Part shown: positions 11,686-30,200 of the stretch, piece by piece | Position numbering within the stretch: the stretch's first letter is position 1 | Layout: every line of letters begins with the position of its first letter | Origin: Psammoneis japonica | Lineage: Eukaryota | Direction of reading: 5' to 3' | Length of the DNA: 51,929 bases | Assembly: GCA_008632985.1 (NCBI GenBank) | Contig: QPGO01000341.1 | Coordinates: forward strand, 1 to 51,929 | Made by a program: the position numbers and the translations under genes | The notes under the pieces: generated by a model | Seen by the model: only the letters and a program-made list of their open reading frames with translations | Database searches by the model: none | Told to the model about the DNA's origin: nothing

Positions 11686-13356
11686 ACACCCGTTTTAATT
11701 CAGTACGAGACGATTCTTCAAACTGGGATGCTCGACCCTACTCAGGAGCGATAATGACGCGCAGCCAAGTTGCGCGTCGCTTTTCCGTTCTGGTGGGTAC
11801 TTCAACTCTTTTTGTTGTTACGCAACACGGCCGGCAGTCATCATCCAATCCATCCATCAAATAATCAAACTCGAGAGGTATCATCTTGTCTACGAAACTT
11901 GCCCCACACTGCACTCCACACTGAACTGTGCTCGAAAGCGTTTCGTTGTTTGGGATGCTCAATAAGCCCTTGTACAGGTACCGGTACATTGTATGGTGAA
12001 TGTTCCCGTTGCTCAAGTACTCTTTTGTGTGCTTTCAAAACTGGCGGTATGGTCAAGTCGATTCGACCATACGTACATTGAAGAATTTCCGACTTTCGAA
12101 CTAACGAGAATAATTGGTGCTGTGATCGACGATGCGGTGGTTGATGGTTGATGAGGATGTCAACAGCGACAAACACACAACATCATCATAGGTCTATTCT
12201 TGGATGATGAATGATGATGCATGGATCGATTTCTGGGCGAACATTCGGTCGGCCACGCGCGCACCGCGCGCGCAGTTTGCTCGAAATTCGTGGCTACGAA
12301 AAACCTACGTTGATTTTACTACCACGAGATTCTCGCCAGAGCGAGAAATCCGTTGGGCCGTCCGCGACTTGGCTCACAATTTCCAAATTCAGCCGTTTTG
12401 TTGCTGGTCGATTGTTTTTCTTTGTTGGCTTCCAAGCGGTGAGTGTTGGTCTTGTGCAGTTCCGTTCTGATTGTTGTTACGTTCGATTTCCTTGTCATGC
12501 GTCCCATGTGTCACTTCTGTTTGCAGCAACGTTGAGAGACGCTCTGGCAGGTGTCAAATGACAAATCAAAGCTCGGATTTACCGGCAGTGTCGAGTTTGA
12601 AATCGACTTGAAAAACCGTTGTCCTTTCCATCTGGCGAGAGGCAAGAATTTCTTTGTGTCGCTGTTGCATTTGTCCATTCTCCTCTTTGTGGAAGTCTCC
12701 CTGTCTCTGTCTCTCTCTGACAAACATGCTTTGTTTTCGTCTTTCCCGCAAGTGAAGCTCGGAGGTTGTCTCGCAGGCCATTTGAATCAAGCATGGCGAT
12801 GTTCACGGCACCGTCGTCATCGGATGAGGACTCACCATGGGAGGATTCACCATCAACAAATGCCCTCTGTGAAGAGCGCACTCGGGATTCGCACAATGGA
12901 AAGTCCAAACGGAGGAAGGGCAAACGAGACAATGACCAGAGTTGGGATAAAAGGCGGAAGCTGTCTGTTGAAGCGAAGCCATCAAATGAAAAGACACTGT
13001 CTCCCTGGCGCCATTTTGCCAACAACATTCCTTTGCCCGACTCGATGTTGTCCCACACTCAAGACCGTCAAAGCCATGCTGCTGCCACAAATGGGACAAG
13101 CGAATCGCATGCTGTCAAGCGAATGCCATCTTCACGTGCAGCGTCGGTAAAACGAACGAGTGAGTTTGCCGATGGAAAGCCACAAGTTTTGAACAGAAGC
13201 GCTAAAGCTGGCGGCTTCCCAGAAGAATCTTCCGTGAAGAAGCGCCAACGAGGTCCAGGTGAGATCGTGACTCGCTTTGTTTGTTTCCTGCATGATGATG
13301 GTTGTCGTCATGAAACTCACTCTTGTCAATTTCATCTCATTTGTTGAATGTGGGCA

Positions 13357-13791
13357 NNNNNNNNNNNNNNNNNNNNNNNNNNNNNNNNNNNNNNNNNNNN
13401 NNNNNNNNNNNNNNNNNNNNNNNNNNNNNNNNNNNNNNNNNNNNNNNNNNNNNNNNNNNNNNNNNNNNNNNNNNNNNNNNNNNNNNNNNNNNNNNNNNNN
13501 NNNNNNNNNNNNNNNNNNNNNNNNNNNNNNNNNNNNNNNNNNNNNNNNNNNNNNNNNNNNNNNNNNNNNNNNNNNNNNNNNNNNNNNNNNNNNNNNNNNN
13601 NNNNNNNNNNNNNNNNNNNNNNNNNNNNNNNNNNNNNNNNNNNNNNNNNNNNNNNNNNNNNNNNNNNNNNNNNNNNNNNNNNNNNNNNNNNNNNNNNNNN
13701 NNNNNNNNNNNNNNNNNNNNNNNNNNNNNNNNNNNNNNNNNNNNNNNNNNNNNNNNNNNNNNNNNNNNNNNNNNNNNNNNNNNNNNNNNNN
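13357..13791. other. Assembly gap (N run)
   Basis: 435 consecutive N. Confidence 1.
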
Positions 13792-14070
13792 GGATCACTT
13801 CCGATGGTCGCCGTGAATGCCAAGACCCCGACTTAGCCATGAGAACAATCAAAGCTGTTGGTGCTCGCAAGAAGACAACCATGTCTTTTGGTTCGACACT
13901 GACTGACACTGGATCTCAAAAACTCAGCAGTGGCGCTCATTTGAAACGGTCTGGCACCCTGTCACCACAAGCAACTGCTGCCCGTGATGCGGGCTGTCGA
14001 GGATTGCGTCAGAACACAGCTTCTGAGAAAACAAGTGAGCTTCGCGCTGCTGCTGCTGCTGCTGCTGCCA

Positions 14071-18844: not shown

Positions 18845-21322
18845 GAAGGTGAAGGTCAGCCCACGCGGTTGAGTGGCCATTGTCGACGACGTGCCCGTTG
18901 TCAACGGCAAGGTGCGCCATGTTGATGAAAGCACGACCAATTTCTTCAAGGTGGTTTGGTATAACGGGTTTCCAAAAGCATCGCTTAACAATTGTGGTGA
19001 ATGCGCCGTGGTTGACGAGGAAAACTGCTTATGCAATACTCAAGTCGAAGAAACCATGGTGTTAATGTGAATTCAATTCTCTCAGCTTTGAGTGTTGGGG
19101 CGCTTGACCCAAGTTCCTTCGATAGCGGTACGTATGCCTCAACGAGACTTAATGATTCCATCACTGTACACAAAAGGTATTCAAGGATGGGGGGCGATAA
19201 AATATTCGAAGTCGAGGACTCGACCGGCCGCACTCATTTTTTGAAGAATGTCAGATCAATTGTGAAGGTCCAAGGCAGGTTTTCATTTAGAAACCCCGTT
19301 CACTTTATGAGTCTCGTACCTTCAGAAACCAACGTTCAGGATGTCATGTACGAAGTGGACGAGTTGCTTAAGCACTTGCTGTGCCATCCAAATACTCCCC
19401 GTTCCTGGTCACATTGCTTATTCAGTGATTTGGTATCTCGAATCCTAGTCCGCGATATGTTGCTGAGTGCTCGGCAGCCTTTCGGACCGGGGTTTACAAG
19501 TATACCGAGCTTTCGTTCGGTAAAGCAGAGTACGGGGACCTATTTGCGACATCTGTGTGCATTCAACTTGACAGAGAAGCTTGATCAGCTATTCTCGACT
19601 CAGATCCGTCCCACGGATCCATCAGAGAGCCTCTCCTAAGGGTGTTTACCCAGCATGATGCGGAGCATGGATTTCCAATCAAAATCTCGCGATGGCGTTC
19701 CGGCTCTTCAGGTTATTTTTATGCACATGAACATTTTTAGCTTCTTTCGCAGGTAATTTATGGACACGTGCAGAGGGCAAACGCAACGTTACAATCATTC
19801 CTCATGAAAAATGATGTTGGCTTGATTTCTCTATCAGCAAGTTCGCACCTGAAGGGCCGGTATCGAGCGCATCACTTGTAGCTGCAGAAGCTCAGCTCCC
19901 AGACGTACGTACTCGCACCCTTCTTTCCCTTGCTGCTTTTGTTTCATTTCTTTTGCTCAGCATTTTGTTTCAAATTCTTGTTTCCATGGAGAAGATGGCA
20001 AAGAATATTAACCTCGTGAATGGTTTGCACTCCCTCGTCAAGTACGGGCTATCATCGTGTGCTTATTTCTTTGGCTTTGATTCACAAGAATTCAGAGAGA
20101 GGATTTGCACGAATGACGGCAACTTTGCCGACTCCACCGGTGTGTTAAAATATAAACAGAGGGGAACAACGCACAGAGCGTCATAAATGAGCTTGCTACC
20201 TTGCTCACATCCGGCCGCTTAGAGCCCAAAACCGAAACGTCATCGCCAAGGCTTACAAAGACGCCCTCTGTCAAGCAGACGCAGGTACTGTACCGCCTTG
20301 CACGTGGGTGGACAAGTGGCTGTTGAAAAGGATGAATACAGGGCAGTTGTGGTGCTCATATTAGACGGATGATGCGATTCTTTCAACATGCTCGTCCCAC
20401 ACAATCGCCGAGTGCAGAATGGGGCTGACGCATATTCGCGATATGCAATAGCAAGAGACTCAGTACGCTTGCCGCGGAAGAGACTCCTTTCAATATCGGC
20501 AGGTAACCAAGCTGGATGCAACACCTTTGGACTGCACGAAAAGATACCCAACTTGCAGAAGCTTCGCAAAGATAGAGACTTGGTTTTCTTTGCCAACGCG
20601 GGGGTTCTTGGAAAGTCCACAAGGAAGGAAACGCATGAAGCAGACACGCCGACACAACTCTTTGCCCATGATACATCGACGTTCGGTCGGAGCAGGAATT
20701 CTTGGAAGACTCGCAAACGCCTTGGCTGTCGGTAAGGCCTAGCATCCTTGTCAATTGATACAGTTCAATTGTTTTGGACGGCAAGCAGGGAGTGTCCGAT
20801 CCGCCGACATCATTGAGCAACACCGGAGTCAATCGGTTCGTGCCAATTGGTTCCGCCACCATGGCAAAGGCCGAAATGGAGCGAGCCATGGGTTATCTCA
20901 ACAACGCCACAAAACCAGACAGCAGCTTTATGGCCAGCACTTGGTCAACCTTGTTGCTCCAATCCCTCTGCCAGAATGAAGATTTGCACCAAGTTCTAAA
21001 ATCAACCTGCGTGACCCAGGATTTTGGTGAAACCGACTTGGGGAAAAAGTTCGAGATCAAAGTAAGTGGAAGGAATGCGGATGTCTTTTATCTGGAACAT
21101 GGCACCTGGGACCACCATGCGGGGTTAGGGGAAGGCCTCGCAAACAACTTTTCCGAGCTTATCGATGCGATTGGATCTTTCGTTGCCGAGTTCAAAAGTC
21201 AAGGAAATTACGACAGTGCCATTATAGTTCTGGCATCCGATTTTGGAAGAACTTTGAGCGCAAACTCGGGAGGTGGAGCTGACCATGAATGGGGCGGAAA
21301 TTACTTTATGCTCGGAGGCGGT
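18845..21322 (+). pseudogene. DUF1800-DUF1501 fusion gene (diatom-type), decayed and 3'-truncated
   Basis: 'FSFRNPVHFMSL', 'HPNTP', 'FGISNPSPRYV', 'HGSIREPLLRV', 'LATLLTSGRL', 'DSFNMLVPH', 'FGLH', 'WDHH', 'SDFGRTLSANSGGGADHEWGGNYFMLGGG'; multiple stops, frameshifts and deletions. Confidence 0.85.
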
Positions 21323-21725
21323 ATGGACTTGGTTCGTCCGATGTACCGTGTCATCCAACGGTTTGTTGTTCGTCTTCGGGGGAAGGATGATGCTGCTACC
21401 CCGCTCTCTATCTATTGTTCGGCGGGCAGCCATGTGGTCCTGATCACCTCTGAAGAAATTGAGGACTGTGTGCGGGATATCGCCGCGTATCTGTATAAAC
21501 TTGATCCCATCAAGGATGCAGACGCGATCAACCGCTGGTCGTCCCACTCTCTTCGGGTTCGTGCTGGTGCATTGCTGCACCAGATGAATTTTGGTGCGGA
21601 GTCCATTCAATGGCTCTTGCGATGGAGGTCTATGGCCTTTTTGGTATACTTGCGCAACAGCACCTTGTTGTCGGATCGACAATGCAGGGCTCTTGATCGC
21701 ACCCTTGGCATGCCTCACCTTTTCA
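21323..21725 (+). mobile_element. C-terminal half of a tyrosine recombinase (DIRS/Ngaro- or Crypton-like remnant)
   Basis: 'WSSHSLRVRAGALL...IQWLLRWRSMAFLVYLRN' matches the HxLR...RW.S.....Y catalytic signature of TE tyrosine recombinases. Confidence 0.8.
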
Positions 21726-22219
21726 AAATTTTTAATTTTCAAATTTTCAATTATTCCCTTTTCTCTACATTTTCGAATATCTTTATTCGACCGTTCGGTT
21801 ATCTAAAATATTTTATTATATATAAGATAAATGCAATCTGGTCTCGAGTGTGTTGTTTTTCTTACACGGCATGTATGTTGCTCTTTGCATCGATGTTCAC
21901 ACTTGGCACACACCAAGCCAAAAAGGTCTCCCCCATTGCCCCCGTTTTTGAATTCTAGGGGATTCCCCAGTGTGTTAAAAAAATCTCCTTCCCAAAACCC
22001 CAAGCTTGCTTTTCATGCAGCATGTTTACGTTTCCCTGCTTCGGAGCCACACAATCTGTCCGTCAACCCTCCCGAGAGTGATGGCTTGTGGCTTAAACCC
22101 CCCTTTTGTCTTTTTCTTTTTTCTGGCTGGCTGCATTGCCCCCCAATGAAATGGGCGTGCACACTGCACTTTGTGTCGGCAGCAGCATGGTCTGTTCACA
22201 CAGTGCAGGGGGGGCTGAC

Positions 22220-24405: not shown

Positions 24406-26801
24406 CTCCCTCTCAAACAAAGGAGCTGCCAACCGCAAAGCAACTTAAGAACAGACTTGAATTTAACAGTGACGAGCCCTTTGGTCACAATGTCAGTGTG
24501 TTGCAAGTCTGTTGTGATCTTGGATGCAGTGACTTGGTTTGGTTTCAGCTGTGAACGAAACCAGCGACACTTGATTGCACAGTGCTTGGATCTTGGTGTG
24601 ACTTGGCCAGGTTCCATGTTGGCCAGAGTCAAAGCTCCAGCATTGTCCTCCCACACAGCGGTCCTGATGGTCTTGGTGGTTCTCAGACCAACTCCAATGC
24701 CTTGAGAAATGGCTTGCATGGTGCAAAGGAAGGGAAGGACAGTTTTCATGCAAGTGGAGAGAGCGCTGCACTCTGCCTCCATTGTTGAGAGTGTGATCTC
24801 AGGTGCAAGCTTGCCAGGCTGGATGACAGGACAGTTCGAAATGCAAATGACGAATCCTGTTTGGCTCTTGACACAAGCCAGGTCTTGCTTGTCTTCATCA
24901 TGTGGCCACAATCCAGCAAAATCTGAGTCCACAAAGACATCAATGTTGAAGTCACCTCATGGCTTGAGGATCAAACCTTCCTCAAGCATCCATTTTGAGC
25001 ATCTGCCAATCCTTTCAAGGGCCAGTTCATGCAAGCAGCGTGGACTGTGAACAAATTGTGCTGCAGAGCTAACTGTGCAGGTGATGTCAGGCCTGGAATG
25101 GCCTTGAAGATGCTGGCATGATCAAAGGCTCCATTCGGCGGGTCTCCACCAGTGTTCTTGACCAATGGAGCAGCCAGTGCAGGCGTTTGGGCCTTTGGCA
25201 GATGGCCTGCATTGAGGGCTTTGATGACACATCTGGCTGGACCGCTCTGAGTGAGCTTGACAGTGCCATCGTTGGTGTCGCTGTCAATGTGTGCACCTGA
25301 AAAGCCTGCAATGGAATCTTTGACTTCGATGGCCAGACCGCCATTGACTTTGAGTTTTTTGACACCACGTTGATGTGCTCTTGCTTTGGAGAAAAGAACA
25401 ATGTGTCGTCAACATGCACAAGGCAGATGACTTTGTCAGACACAAAGAGACACGGATCAACATCATCCTGTGATTAAAATCCGGTGTCTTTCAATTTTGA
25501 TTTAAGGTGCAGGAAGAAATTTCGTGGTCCTTGATTGAGACCATGCATGGTGCCTGGAGCATCCTCGTGGCATTTGTGTGAACATGCCAGAGCATCCCCG
25601 CTCTTTGGATGTCATGGCATCCCATTTGGGATCCTTGTCAATTGGAGCATGCACAAAAGCAGCAACACTGTCGACTTGCTTGGTTGAGAGCTCCAGAATT
25701 TGGGAAAGCACAAGCATCAACTGCGCTGTTGTCCAATTGACAACTGGAGCAAAGGCATCAAAGCAATCAACACCCTCCAATTGCTCATCACTGCAGACAC
25801 AGAACCGGGCTTCACATTTTCGGATTGCACCATCAGGGTGCCATTTGCATTTGAAGGCCCAAGTGGATGGCAAGACATTCATCCAGTCTTGGCAGTCAAC
25901 TTCTTCCCAGGCGTCTTTTCCATTGACAAGGGAATCAATTTCAACATCACAAGCCTTGAGACAGGCTGCACAATTGGGTCCACTCATTGCTTCTTCCCAA
26001 GTGGGGTCATCCACAGAGTTTGCATTGGCTGCAAGGGCTAAAGGACGCATCTCCTTGAGTGCACCATGGACTTGATCGGCATTTTTGTTGAAGACATTGA
26101 TCATTGCACGTAAGTCTTTTGACCCCGGTGCGTTTGTGATGCCATCCCATTGCAGTGCCATCAAAAACTGCTCATTCAGTGCACCTGACTTTGCTGAGTG
26201 TTTGGGATTCTTGCAGGCAGTTGGCAATTCGTTGGACGGAGTTCGAGTGTCAGCTTTCACAGCTTCAATGAGACGGTCTGGTTTCTTGACGGTTCAGCCG
26301 CTTCAAGTCCAAGCAGGAGTTGCAGTGGCATTTTGAGCCAATTGGAGAGGCTCTGCTTTGTCAGAACCAAAATCCAGGTTGTCAGGTGAGTCGTGATGAT
26401 CAACAAGTGATGATTTGCAGTTGCTGTCATCACTGAACCCATCAATTTCGACTCCCTCTGGAGCCTCTAAAGTCACAGATTCTAGATCATCCAATGATTC
26501 TGCATTGTTGGTGGGAAGCTCTCCCTCTGGAGCTGAGACAGAAGAGGCAGGAGTTGGAGGAGGAATGCTGGCAGAGTGTTGTTGTTGTCACAACTTGCAC
26601 ATCTGACAACAGCTCTTGCGGTGGCGGCACTCTTCTGGCATCAGCCAATTGTCGCGTGTCACCAGGAGTTGGTGGCGAGGGTCCCAGGAGGGCTCTTGTG
26701 CGTGAGCATGGTTGACTGCAGAGTCAGCAGTGAGCAGGGATTCCCAGACGTTGGCGGAGAATGGGGCATCTTGGAAGAATCCCCCAGAGTCGCTGTTGGG
26801 T

Positions 26802-27248
26802 TGCAGCATGCATGCAGACAAAAGGTTGTTTTTGTCACGCCCTTTGTGACATTTAAAGGCTGCAACACGTCGCCGTGACACATTGGCTCTTGCCAGCAGC
26901 TGTGTGTTGCACTCCTCCCCATGTGTCACGCGTCCATGCGGCTCTTTACTGACGTGTGCTGACACTGCACGGTTTTGGCGGAACAGTGTGGGTACGTGCG
27001 AAGGAACACACAGAACTGCACAGAGTTTTGCGCGTTCGACAGTGATCAACGTTGCTGCAGACAACTCCCACTCAGGGTTTCGAACCCCTGGCCTCCTGCC
27101 CAATGGTTGCGATGAACCACTCCGCTGTGAATTCACAATGCAGCATGCATGCAGACAAAAGGTTGTTTTTGTCACGCCCTTTGTGACATTTAAAGGCTGC
27201 AACACGTCGCCGTGATACATTGACTCTCATCAGTGGCTGCACATTGCA
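26802..27248 (-). mobile_element. 447-bp mini-LTR element (TRIM-like): 110-bp LTRs (26802-26911, 27139-27248), PPT and 4-bp TSD
   Basis: Both repeats run TGCA...TGCA. PPT GGGGAGGAG at 26912-26920 (minus). GGGT at 26798-26801 and 27249-27252. It interrupts the Copia B integrase region. Confidence 0.88.
27063..27134 (-). other. tRNA-like sequence with Pol III A-box and B-box inside the mini-LTR element (not a canonical tRNA)
   Basis: Minus strand: CAGCGGAGTGG (A-box-like; GCG/CGC D-stem), then GGTTCGAAACCC (B-box; T-loop TTCGAAA). The anticodon arm is poorly formed. Confidence 0.6.
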
Positions 27249-30200
27249 GGGTGCCATTGAAAAGTGGTCATCATGGACCACATGGTGTTGGGGGCCAACA
27301 AAGCCTGTCGTGAGATTGAGGATCAGGCCAATGTCAGTGGAGGGTGCTGGGGACATGCCAAGGCAAGTTTCTGATGGAGTGGGAGAAGCTCCTTTTGACC
27401 TGGCATAAGGTTCTGGTTGGTTTGCGAAGTGATGGACAAAAAGGTGTTCAGCTGGAAAGTGGTGCTGACAGGAGCCACATTGCATTTGGAGACTCCGGCA
27501 GATGTCGGGTCGGACATCATCATGAAAGGCAGGTCGCTGTCCTCATTGCATGGAAACTCAAGGGCATCACCACTTGGGAGAGTCAGTGTGGTTTCATTGC
27601 CACCTGCCAAACATTCACCTTGATTGCCATTTTTTAAAAGTGGGGCTGAGGGCTGAAAAGGTGAACGGAAGCATCAGGGATGCAATGAGCCTCACAGTTC
27701 TGATGGTGCAAACAACATTCCAGCAGTTGATTGTGCCCCATTCCACGTGACCTTGACCAACTGCTTGGGCGGCAGAGGACAAACCATTGACAGTGGTCAA
27801 TTCAGCGGGTTCCAGGGGGCCAGCAAAGTCACTCAAATGCGGAGCGAGGGAAGAAGAGGCGCCATTGTGGAGTGCCACGAGCGCATCAACAGGTGAGGCT
27901 GATGACAGAGCTTGACATTGGGAGCTGTCAAGTTGTTGCAAATTGGCTGGCAACTTGATTGGTCTCATCATGTTGTCAGAGAGCCAGGGTGGATCCAGCA
28001 AGGATGCATCAGCAAGGGATGGTCCTGTTTTCAAGGTTTGGCGGGAGAACACAGCTGCTCTGCCAAAGCCACCACTCAAGCAGGTTGCTGCTGTCACATG
28101 GGACAGGTTGGTGGCAACACAAGAGAGTGTTGGTGCTTCACCTCAAGCATGCAACACATCCGATGAGGCAAGTGCTTTGATCATGTGAAATTGTGCAAGT
28201 GGATTGATGCCTTGCACAAACTTGTCTGATGGGGTGCCACACTGCATGTCACACACAATCCAAGTTTGGTGTGGCAGTCGGTGTTTGATGTGGAAGTGCT
28301 CCTTGAGTTTGTGTTCTTTGGGGTCTTCAGGTGGTGCAAAGTTGGATGGATTTGAATCAGCAGGGTCAGATTCTGCAGTTTTAGTCCACAGACAATTGCC
28401 CAATGGATCAAGCAACATGACAAAATTGGTTGGCATTGCACCGTGTGGCAAATCGCACATCTTGTAGGGCAGATGCAGCAATTGAGCACAAGCTTTGTTG
28501 GCTTCTTGGATGGGATCAACGCAAGCAAACCTGGGTTTTTTTGGCTTCGGAGGTTTGATTCGACGTTTTGATTTTAACAATTTTGAGGACTTGGATTGAC
28601 GACACTGCTTGAAATCCTGTTCTTCAATGGCAGTGTTGTCAGGAACTGGCACGCAACATGTTTGGAGCCAAGTTGTTGGATGGTGGAAAGATTGCAAGGG
28701 ATCTCTTCATGGGTGTCGAACTGGACAACGGCACAAATGACGCATGTGCGCATGATGGTTTAATTTGTGGTGCGATTGATGATGATGCGGATGTTGATGC
28801 AAGGTGTGCTCCAAAGATGGGGTGACAACAAATGCAGGCATCTTGTCATGTGACAGCAAAGGATTCTTGGAAAAGAGCAGCAAGTGGAAAAACACTGCAG
28901 AATGGCAGAGACGGCTGTGTCTCCTCCCTCTCAAAGAATCTGGAGAGCAAACCACAGGAAGAGGGACTGCGCCGCAGTCACATGAGCCTGGATGTCCCTT
29001 CCAGGACAGCAAGATTGGAGAGGGGTGGGCTGTGCACTTGAGAAGGGAGGTGCACCCAAAGCTTCAAGAGAAGGAAGCAAAGAGACCCTTGATGGTCTCA
29101 GTGACCTCGTGCTGAGCATTTGCAATGGCCACTTCATGTTCAAGATTAGGAGCAGAAGCAGGGGCTGGAGCAGGGGCTGGGGCAGGAGTGGGTGCGGCCA
29201 GAGGTGCAGCAGCAGCACCAGTGACTTGAGCCATGGGACACCAGCACTTGGTCTTGCAATGATGACAATGATCTCTACCATCAATGTTGTGGCAACTGTC
29301 GTTGTTCTTTTTGGCTTCAGTCGGTGGCTGCCACTTCTTGGGAATGGTTTCTGTGGGTTCACCATCCCTCTTGGCTGAAGTGTCATTCTTGCTCTGGGCT
29401 CATTTTGCATCAAAAAAACAGTTTCTTGTTGGCATGAACTCAAGCCTTGTCAACAGGCTTCTTGCAATCAGACAAGGTGTGTGGACCACTGCAATTGAAG
29501 CATGTGACCACACCAGTGACAAAGGAGGTTGCACTCTTCTTGGTGGTGTGACACCTGACCACTTGTTGGAAGAGACTGGAGACAAATGCTGTTTCTTGGC
29601 AAATTCAAGAAGATCAGAAACTGAAGGTGTGTCAGCCATTGTGGTCATCAGCATGCAACGGGACTTGAACTTGTTGACCTTGGTGTCTTTGGCAAGATGG
29701 TCAAACAGTTCATTGAACTCAGGGACACTTGAAGTTTGAAAGACTTCAGCAAGTTTCTACATGAAGTTGGCGGGAATGACAGATTGACCCTTCTGATCTT
29801 GAAGATTTTTGAGTTGTGAACATCCACCATGGATGAGAGAGACAACTTTGCTTGCATCTTTGCCGTCAAAGTTGGATGTCTTGAGGTTGGACATGGCAGC
29901 AACCAAGTGACAAGCAGCCTCTTCTGAGTTGCTCTAGAGGAGCTTCATCACAAGGATGAAAAACAAAGGTCCACCTTGCTCCTCTTGTGAGCACTTGAGG
30001 CAGGTCTCGTTGACTTTCTTCTGAAGGGTGCACAAAGCATTCCTTTCAAAGCAGCCACTGGTGAGATGAAGGTTTTGGCTGGCCCAAGTCCCATTGGGAT
30101 CCTCAAGCATCACAGCGTGCCACTTGTTGCCAGCGGTGACTTCCTTTTTGGTGACAGTGGAGTGTTCCGAGCAAAGGTCATGAGTCGTGCAGGTGTCAGG

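Follow-up and report, generated by a model that had tools for sequence, protein, structure and literature searches.

The repeat at 26802-27248 on the minus strand of the window (the whole 51,929-nucleotide stretch of Psammoneis japonica DNA analysed here) is a high-copy TRIM, bounded by TSDs, that has a 12-bp palindrome where a PBS is expected and, in the interior, a stretch resembling a tRNA 3' half. It is probably non-autonomous and mobilised in trans by a Ty3/gypsy family of the same genome whose primer sites are of the palindromic type. The polypurine tract GGGGAGGAG (26912-26920), which recurs in a 30-copy alignment, adjoins the LTR at 26802-26911 on the minus strand, and the element therefore reads on that strand, with its 5' LTR at 27139-27248 and its 3' LTR at 26802-26911. 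Both LTRs are 110 nt long, begin with TG, end with CA and share 90% identity; each contains a T4 run, at 27157-27160 (LTR positions 89-92) in the 5' LTR and 26820-26823 in the 3' LTR. They enclose a non-coding interior of 227 nt, for a total of 447 bp, and GGGT, read on the plus strand, stands on both flanks, at 27249-27252 on the upstream side and 26798-26801 on the downstream side. LTRs, polypurine tract, TSD and interior are thus all present as a preliminary description of this DNA had given them. A length below 1 kb, two LTRs, a non-coding interior, a polypurine tract and dispersed copies with TSDs make the element a TRIM.

Read from the 5' LTR, the interior opens after a 1-nt spacer with the palindrome (27126-27137), which the preliminary description overlooked. 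It reads TGTGAATTCACA in the window copy and TATGAATTCATA in little-mutated copies, is identical in a set of metagenome elements and has the same arrangement in Gypsy loci. An A-box-like 11-mer (27117-27127) overlaps the palindrome by 2 nt, and its first 6 nt are common to the leaders of LTR elements that have no tRNA-like piece. There follow a short stem-loop of the AGTGGTT/AACCATT type (27102-27121), which is no cloverleaf and has subfamily indels in or adjoining its loop, and a fragment resembling a tRNA 3' half (27073-27099), made up of the 3' strand of an anticodon stem, a variable loop and a T-arm that includes the B-box GGTTCGAAACC (27076-27086). The two motifs singled out earlier, CAGCGGAGTGGTTCATCGC and GGGGTTCGAAACCC, lie where they had been placed. 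Beyond the T-arm come a 40-nt block (27033-27072), which in the most diverged copy shows no differences other than hypermutation, and a more variable non-coding 3' interior (26921-27032) that runs up to the polypurine tract. About 500 bp downstream of the element is a weak RVT_2 match (E 8e-6, under the curated cut-off) beside which no integrase was found, and because of this match the window copy may be nested in a decayed Copia element. Elsewhere, the window holds an ORF with a DUF1501 match (20762-21958, E 7e-18) and a stretch of low GC (0.29 at 13001-14000), open in frames of either strand and likely to be a simple repeat; the ESM Atlas gave no usable match for a window ORF.

The preliminary description had allowed that the repeat might be a single internally deleted copy of an ordinary Gypsy element, and the genome-wide copy check that it proposed disposes of this reading. 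A 25-nt interior motif has 243 exact genome matches and the LTR core 307, with none in the control for either, and a genome search returned 322 candidates, 40 of which, when scored, gave 44 matches at 89-100% identity. The element is an abundant family of at least 243 copies. Exact 4-bp TSDs flank 27/30 copies in one set and 57 of the 71 distinct full-length copies in another, and TSDs of 5 or 6 bp occur in none of the copies examined. The 57 TSDs show a C-W-W-G-like target preference, 35 of them having C at position 1 and 29 having G at position 4. Tandem LTR-interior(-LTR) arrays and local TRIM clusters occur at three loci and solo LTRs of the TRIM at four. One copy (G000:C118, ~160900-163170) has the same internal inversion in both LTRs and is split by an insertion of about 1.5 kb.

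The family sits in DNA with a strong mutational bias. Across 24 kb of the window (24001-48000), observed/expected TpA falls to 0.03-0.07, and CpG is also depleted in repeat DNA. When 66 copies are compared with the little-mutated reference copy L095, transition rates per base reach 39% at TpA and 3.6% at CpG, with about 1% at the remaining G/C sites; TpA thus decays some ten times faster than CpG in the TRIM family, and some ApT sites next to TpA change too. TpA-specific T/A to C/G hypermutation has been reported in Bigelowiella natans (bioRxiv 10.64898/2026.01.13.699255). The TA site in the A-box reads CA in 25/30 copies, TG in 5/30 and CG in none, and 14 copies keep an intact TAGCGGAGTGG, so the earlier reversal of a TA-to-CA change at this site was correct.

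What primes reverse transcription in such an element? After the 5' LTR and its single spacer base the palindrome begins, with no TGG. A tRNA-type PBS is absent: among 40 host tRNAs, an incomplete set for which 63 of 3479 candidates were scored, the longest run complementary to the primer site is 6 nt, in the anticodon loop of tRNA-Met. A Tf1-type PBS, which would pair with the LTR of the element itself (R region), is also absent, as the longest such complement is 4 nt (-4.6 kcal/mol); the palindrome paired with a second copy of itself reaches -11.6 kcal/mol. The preliminary description's alternative suggestion of an unusual priming mechanism gains support from these observations, although what carries it is the palindrome, which also occurs in Gypsy elements that have no B-box.

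The Gypsy elements of this genome have the same arrangement. Of 150 scored RT_RNaseH loci, 20 were fetched, mostly chosen for long open frames, and yielded 18 LTR pairs and 17 refined ends. In 13/17 loci the LTR is followed by a 1-nt spacer and a 12-mer that is purine/pyrimidine-symmetric at 6/6 pairs, six of these being exact palindromes; in 3/17 an exact 12-nt palindrome adjoins the LTR with no spacer between them, and the remaining locus is mis-bounded. All 17 lack a TGG PBS, and no B-box lies within 300 nt in any of them. These loci represent about seven families with 31-64% Pol identity, different palindromes and TSDs of either 4 or 5 bp. The L108 family, with the order RT, RNase H, integrase and 4-bp TSDs, is the best type match for the partner among the Gypsy loci examined, and the 3' LTR of L109 agrees with that of the TRIM at all of the first 8 nt and at 9 of the final 10. 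A Gypsy partner had been proposed earlier from the 4-bp TSD; the common terminal and primer-site architecture argues for such a partner, and the TSD alone does not, since Gypsy elements here make both 4-bp and 5-bp TSDs. The search for an autonomous element with the same LTR, which had also been suggested, found none with the TRIM's LTR or exact palindrome among the 20 Gypsy loci fetched. Other candidates for the partner turned out to be something else. Twelve matches with a base other than G after the palindrome comprise copies of the TRIM, a single rearranged element and sequence that is unrelated; five matches with a base other than A at position 128 are four TRIM copies and one unrelated sequence; and 11 single-LTR matches and two clusters are solo LTRs, broken copies or arrays. 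The Atlas cluster nearest to one of the genome's Gypsy Pol proteins is commonest in Bacillariophyta, the phylum being known for only two of its members.

A mechanism compatible with this architecture can be outlined. Genomic RNA would be made from the LTR, as for ordinary TRIMs, and minus-strand synthesis would be primed without a tRNA by a second copy of the element's RNA, which would pair through the 12-nt palindrome and end at its 3' edge. Priming by another RNA copy of the element, by a route distinct from both the tRNA and the Tf1 routes, is to be regarded as the probable mode. In such a scheme the nascent plus strand, ending at the palindrome, would sometimes continue into a primer that bears the U5 of the element itself, or fold back, and the copies bear marks of the kind expected. 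Six copies (seven matches, one copy being matched on both strands) have an A directly after the palindrome, in agreement with the complement of the LTR end. With 250 copies and a rate of 0.5% per site assumed, the Poisson p is 0.002, although two of the six have a subfamily marker in common. The next base is T in 4/6 of these copies, as against 3/65 in the background (Fisher p 5e-4), and in one copy the extension amounts to 8 nt of the reverse complement of the LTR end, one TpA decay being allowed. On the left side no extension of at least 4 nt was found, so that extensions of this length number one on the right and none on the left, and two left-side changes co-occur in 2/71 copies where 5 are expected by chance. 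An element with the TSD ATTG has an inverted piece of the LTR end, stopping exactly at the palindrome edge, in both of its LTRs, and the piece has therefore passed through reverse transcription. We infer that these footprints fit a nascent plus strand with its end at the palindrome, primed by RNA of the element itself; the rightward extension can also be explained by fold-back of a DNA end or by replication-linked correction of a quasi-palindrome.

Could the primer instead be a half-tRNA? Both host Met tRNAs are complementary to the first 6 nt past the LTR, the match ending at about position 38, and a half-tRNA-Met cut in the anticodon loop, of the Copia/Ty5 type, would leave the palindrome as an incidental feature or a dimerisation signal. 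Such priming is documented in Copia lineages (PMC6317226, PMC10886601). However, the complementarity consists of 6 Watson-Crick pairs only, the primer sites of seven Gypsy families stay palindromic with differing sequences that are mostly unrelated to Met, and the extension footprints copy the LTR end and not a tRNA. Among the plant elements of PMC6317226, moreover, half-tRNA primers are described in Ty1/copia only. A half-tRNA-Met primer is accordingly very improbable. A primer freed by an RNase P-type cut at the tRNA mimic was rejected: the tRNA-like +1 (position 115) lies inside the palindrome, there is no acceptor stem, and the Gypsy partners have no such piece.

The tRNA-like piece had been described as tRNA-derived, with an A-box and a B-box. 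The family does keep A/B-like boxes, the A-box pattern in 61/71 copies and the B-box in 67/71 of a sample partly selected by these motifs. When the interior is shuffled, an A-box and a B-box spaced 20-45 nt apart, by the box consensuses, appear in 0/200,000 shuffles and a B-box alone in 674. The best local match of the interior to 29 host tRNAs is to Pro or Glu, with a score of 36-37.5 that beats all 300 shuffles for each of 4 copies. Divided into parts and compared with the 40 host tRNAs, positions 149-185 stand out (p 0.002), and positions 111-148 (p 0.30) and 186-336 (p 0.98) do not. Resemblance to host tRNAs beyond chance is by this comparison confined to the 3' half, that is, the variable loop and the T-arm with its B-box, so the earlier derivation from a tRNA holds for the 3' half only. 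No isotype stands out, as Pro, Glu and Asp score alike. A functional tRNA or known RNA family was rejected as an identity: ARAGORN found no tRNA gene in the window, Rfam at E<=10 matched neither tRNA nor 5S, the region forms no cloverleaf with acceptor and anticodon stems, and the T-arm block folds no better than shuffles (z 0.2 to 0.4).

A free SINE as the source of the fragment was also considered and rejected. A search for generic A/B-box arrangements gave 70 matches (11 in the control), of which 22 were read, and none was the source; a Helenus-type repeat, family B, scores 35.5-42 against the fragment, barely closer than the best host tRNA at 36-37.5. Family B, seen at eleven loci, is a repeat with a period of about 725 bp in which a tRNA-like piece, nearest to host tRNA-Arg TCG, and then a T5 run lie inside a long direct repeat, an arrangement like that of Helenus. 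The same reading turned up a further abundant repeat with short-spaced A/B-like boxes within a longer conserved unit, a short MITE-like element at two loci with terminal inverted repeats and a B-box-like motif in its left end, and a tandem repeat of about 410 bp, also at two loci, with an A/B-box-like pattern.

The origin of the A-box is a different matter, on which metagenome relatives bear. Of 17 metagenome matches to the LTR end plus palindrome, 13 are unrelated, and the other four (L208, L210, L211 and L212) form one family of larger, apparently non-coding LTR elements, with no ORF of more than 140 aa in the ORF listing; L208 and L210 are 99.7% identical. The LTR of this family is about 530 bp and its unit about 3.5-4 kb, and L211 has polypurine tract, LTR and palindrome in tandem. 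The family and the TRIM agree at 27-28 bases, with 5-6/6 lying upstream of the motif used in the search and GCGG following that motif. The LTRs of L208 and L211 start with the same 8 nt as the TRIM LTR. It lacks the GG of the A-box and any nearby B-box. Because elements of this kind also have TAGCGG, the six bases with which the A-box opens, it is assigned by this homology to primer-site leader DNA. The metagenome elements then form a conserved 7-bp stem, TAGCGGT/ACCGCTA, relative to which the TRIM stem is shifted (AGTGGT/ACCACT or AGTGGTT/AACCATT). Past TAGCGG the L095 subfamily shows significant homology (p under 0.001 to 0.02), and 4 other copies show weak homology (p 0.03 to 0.33). TAGCGG alone is therefore taken as secure, and AGTGG may be derived from either the leader or a tRNA. 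Searches of viral contigs gave 2 unrelated matches and then none. The most diverged genomic copy, L219, is 82% identical, has its own TSD and carries LTR changes common to both LTRs. It has GCGGT, as in the metagenome elements, and its A-box is broken, with the T-arm block kept. In this one diverged copy, differences number 2/67 in the T-arm and the next 40 nt against 16/112 in the 3' interior (p 0.02), and 8/25 in the A-box/hairpin region. Within the main family, variation is too small and the sample too motif-biased to reveal selection on the boxes.

Do these boxes make the retrotransposition template? The preliminary description had read them as a Pol III promoter, analogous to that of Cassandra. 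Pol III starts a short distance upstream of +1. With the A-box T at element position 122 and the tRNA-like +1 at 115, the start would be expected at about positions 95-115. The sense strand has T4 runs at LTR positions 89-92 only, and none in the interior. Since such a start lies downstream of LTR position 92 and the T4 stop falls at positions 89-92 of the 3' LTR, a Pol III transcript would have no terminal redundancy for strand transfer unless it read through T4 to the LTR end. In host tRNA genes the first T-run downstream is T4 in 12 of 29, T5 or longer in 16 and absent within range in one. The promoter reading thus loses ground on several counts: the tRNA-like piece lies outside the LTRs, part of its A-box is primer-site DNA, L219 has a broken A-box, and the sole T4 runs lie upstream of any expected start. 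Two runs examined for expression (word shares 0.19 and 0.06) each gave one contig at a depth of about 3; the contigs span element positions 115-289 and 106-373, 115 being the tRNA-like +1, and carry no information on strand, start, end or transcription.

A way around the missing redundancy would be a TRIMp3-like scheme, in which the interior A and B boxes drive Pol III from a start in the final 10-20 nt of the 5' LTR and the transcript reads through the T4 of the 3' LTR, leaving a very short R region. Both boxes match their consensuses at 11/11 positions, the T8-to-T54 spacing of 43-45 nt compares with 45 in host tRNA-Pro, the pair does not arise in the shuffles described above, and nothing in the interior would stop the transcript. 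A redundancy of 18 nt suffices for Cassandra (PMC10886601), and the abundant subfamily (196 matches) is set apart by its perfect A-box, which at canonical spacing is hardly to be expected by chance, with T in place of A at position 128 in a single copy. Against this stand the start and stop positions just given, with boxes outside the LTR and T4 acting as the first T-run after 12/29 of the host tRNA genes listed; TAGCGG is leader DNA also in elements without an A-box, and L219, with its A-box broken, is a transposed copy with its own TSD. The scheme is for these reasons unlikely, and on geometry the same low probability attaches to an element that functions like Helenus or Cassandra. It is similarly doubtful that self-RNA priming through the palindrome and a de novo Pol III promoter operate together, the tail of the primer site having become an A-box and a captured T-arm a B-box. 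On that combined reading, itself improbable as a whole, a change from T to A at position 128 would have completed the A-box and launched the main burst of about 200 copies, and the template would be a read-through RNA with an R region limited to the last few LTR bases. If Pol III does act in this way, a promoter would have been assembled from a primer site and a captured tRNA fragment.

The preferred reading of the fragment, alongside LTR-driven transcription and self-RNA priming, is that a tRNA 3' half may have been captured by template switching directly after the stem-loop that follows the palindrome and may have been kept as a cis element, either as an RNA T-arm hairpin or as a TFIIIC B-box, and not as the promoter of the transposition template. 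A cis role of this kind has close to an even chance. Alternatively, the element could be an ordinary palindrome-primed TRIM in which the tRNA or SINE fragment is a functionless neutral passenger, as would suit the lack of a cloverleaf and of Rfam or ARAGORN matches, the failure to assign an isotype (with family B scoring about as well as the best host tRNA), the youth of the family, in which conservation is expected anyway, and Gypsy partners that do without the piece. The T-arm block is nonetheless the best-conserved part of the interior in L219, and a complete A-box stands at the correct distance, which leaves a neutral passenger somewhat unlikely. For the fragment itself, production of genomic RNA by Pol III is less probable still, and Pol III transcription that yields a by-product only ranks equally low.

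The element is a TRIM that is neither Helenus nor Cassandra, because its tRNA-like piece lies in the interior. Helenus (TRIMp3; Kojima 2024), known from fungi, animals and one plant, is defined by a tRNA-like sequence within its LTRs and has a tRNA-complementary PBS (PMC10886601). The likeness is considerable, as both are TRIMs of less than 1 kb with an A/B-box segment that is tRNA-like without being a functional tRNA, and the 4-bp TSD is that of the Gypsy-dependent Helenus of animals (PMC10886601); here, in contrast, the boxes occur once, in a single interior fragment after the palindrome, with none in the LTRs and no tRNA PBS. Cassandra, too, is a TRIM with Pol III boxes derived from a small RNA, and tandem LTR-interior arrays are common to both, but its boxes are 5S-derived and lie within each LTR, its PBS is of the TGG type and its transcription has been shown (PMC7215508, PMC10886601), none of which applies to this element or is demonstrated in it. 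The 5S-derived LTR sequence that is the hallmark of Cassandra and Ajax is absent by Rfam at E<=10. Cassandra, Ajax and Helenus escape the redundancy problem through a promoter inside each LTR (PMC10886601, PMC7215508). With TRIMs carrying tRNA-like boxes already published as Helenus, the tRNA-like piece alone is a modest addition, distinguished by its interior location. In the literature covered, which excludes most subscription papers, Repbase and Kojima's supplements, we found neither a TRIM with an interior tRNA fragment nor a Gypsy element with a palindromic PBS.

The palindromic primer site matters more, being the more surprising part and common to the Gypsy elements of this genome. In short LTRs, polypurine tract, TSD, non-coding interior, solo LTRs and tandem arrays the element resembles an ordinary TRIM, from which it differs in the palindrome that replaces the PBS and in the captured tRNA 3' half. 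The PBS types described in PMC6317226 are the tRNA 3' end, the half-tRNA and self-priming. Tf1 and sushi elements would be matched in priming by the element's own RNA independently of a tRNA, but Tf1 needs a PBS complementary to the transcript 5' end in the LTR (PMC6317226, PMC5445492), whereas here the longest LTR complement is 4 nt. The Conserved Hairpin Site of the fungal Copia element GalEa (Donnart 2017) likewise combines the lack of a tRNA PBS with a palindrome directly after the 5' LTR and then a hairpin (PMC5445492). There, a 10-nt palindrome in a Copia element includes the last A of the LTR and itself forms the stem (PMC5445492); here, the palindrome is 12 nt long, follows a spacer, belongs to Gypsy-type elements, and the stem starts at or after its last 2 nt. 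A role of the GalEa site in priming has been proposed, and the start of reverse transcription in elements with a palindrome for a PBS was left open in that system (PMC5445492). The TRIM family offers a short, high-copy substrate that bears footprints of a strand ending at the palindrome, and makes the question of priming that GalEa raised directly testable.
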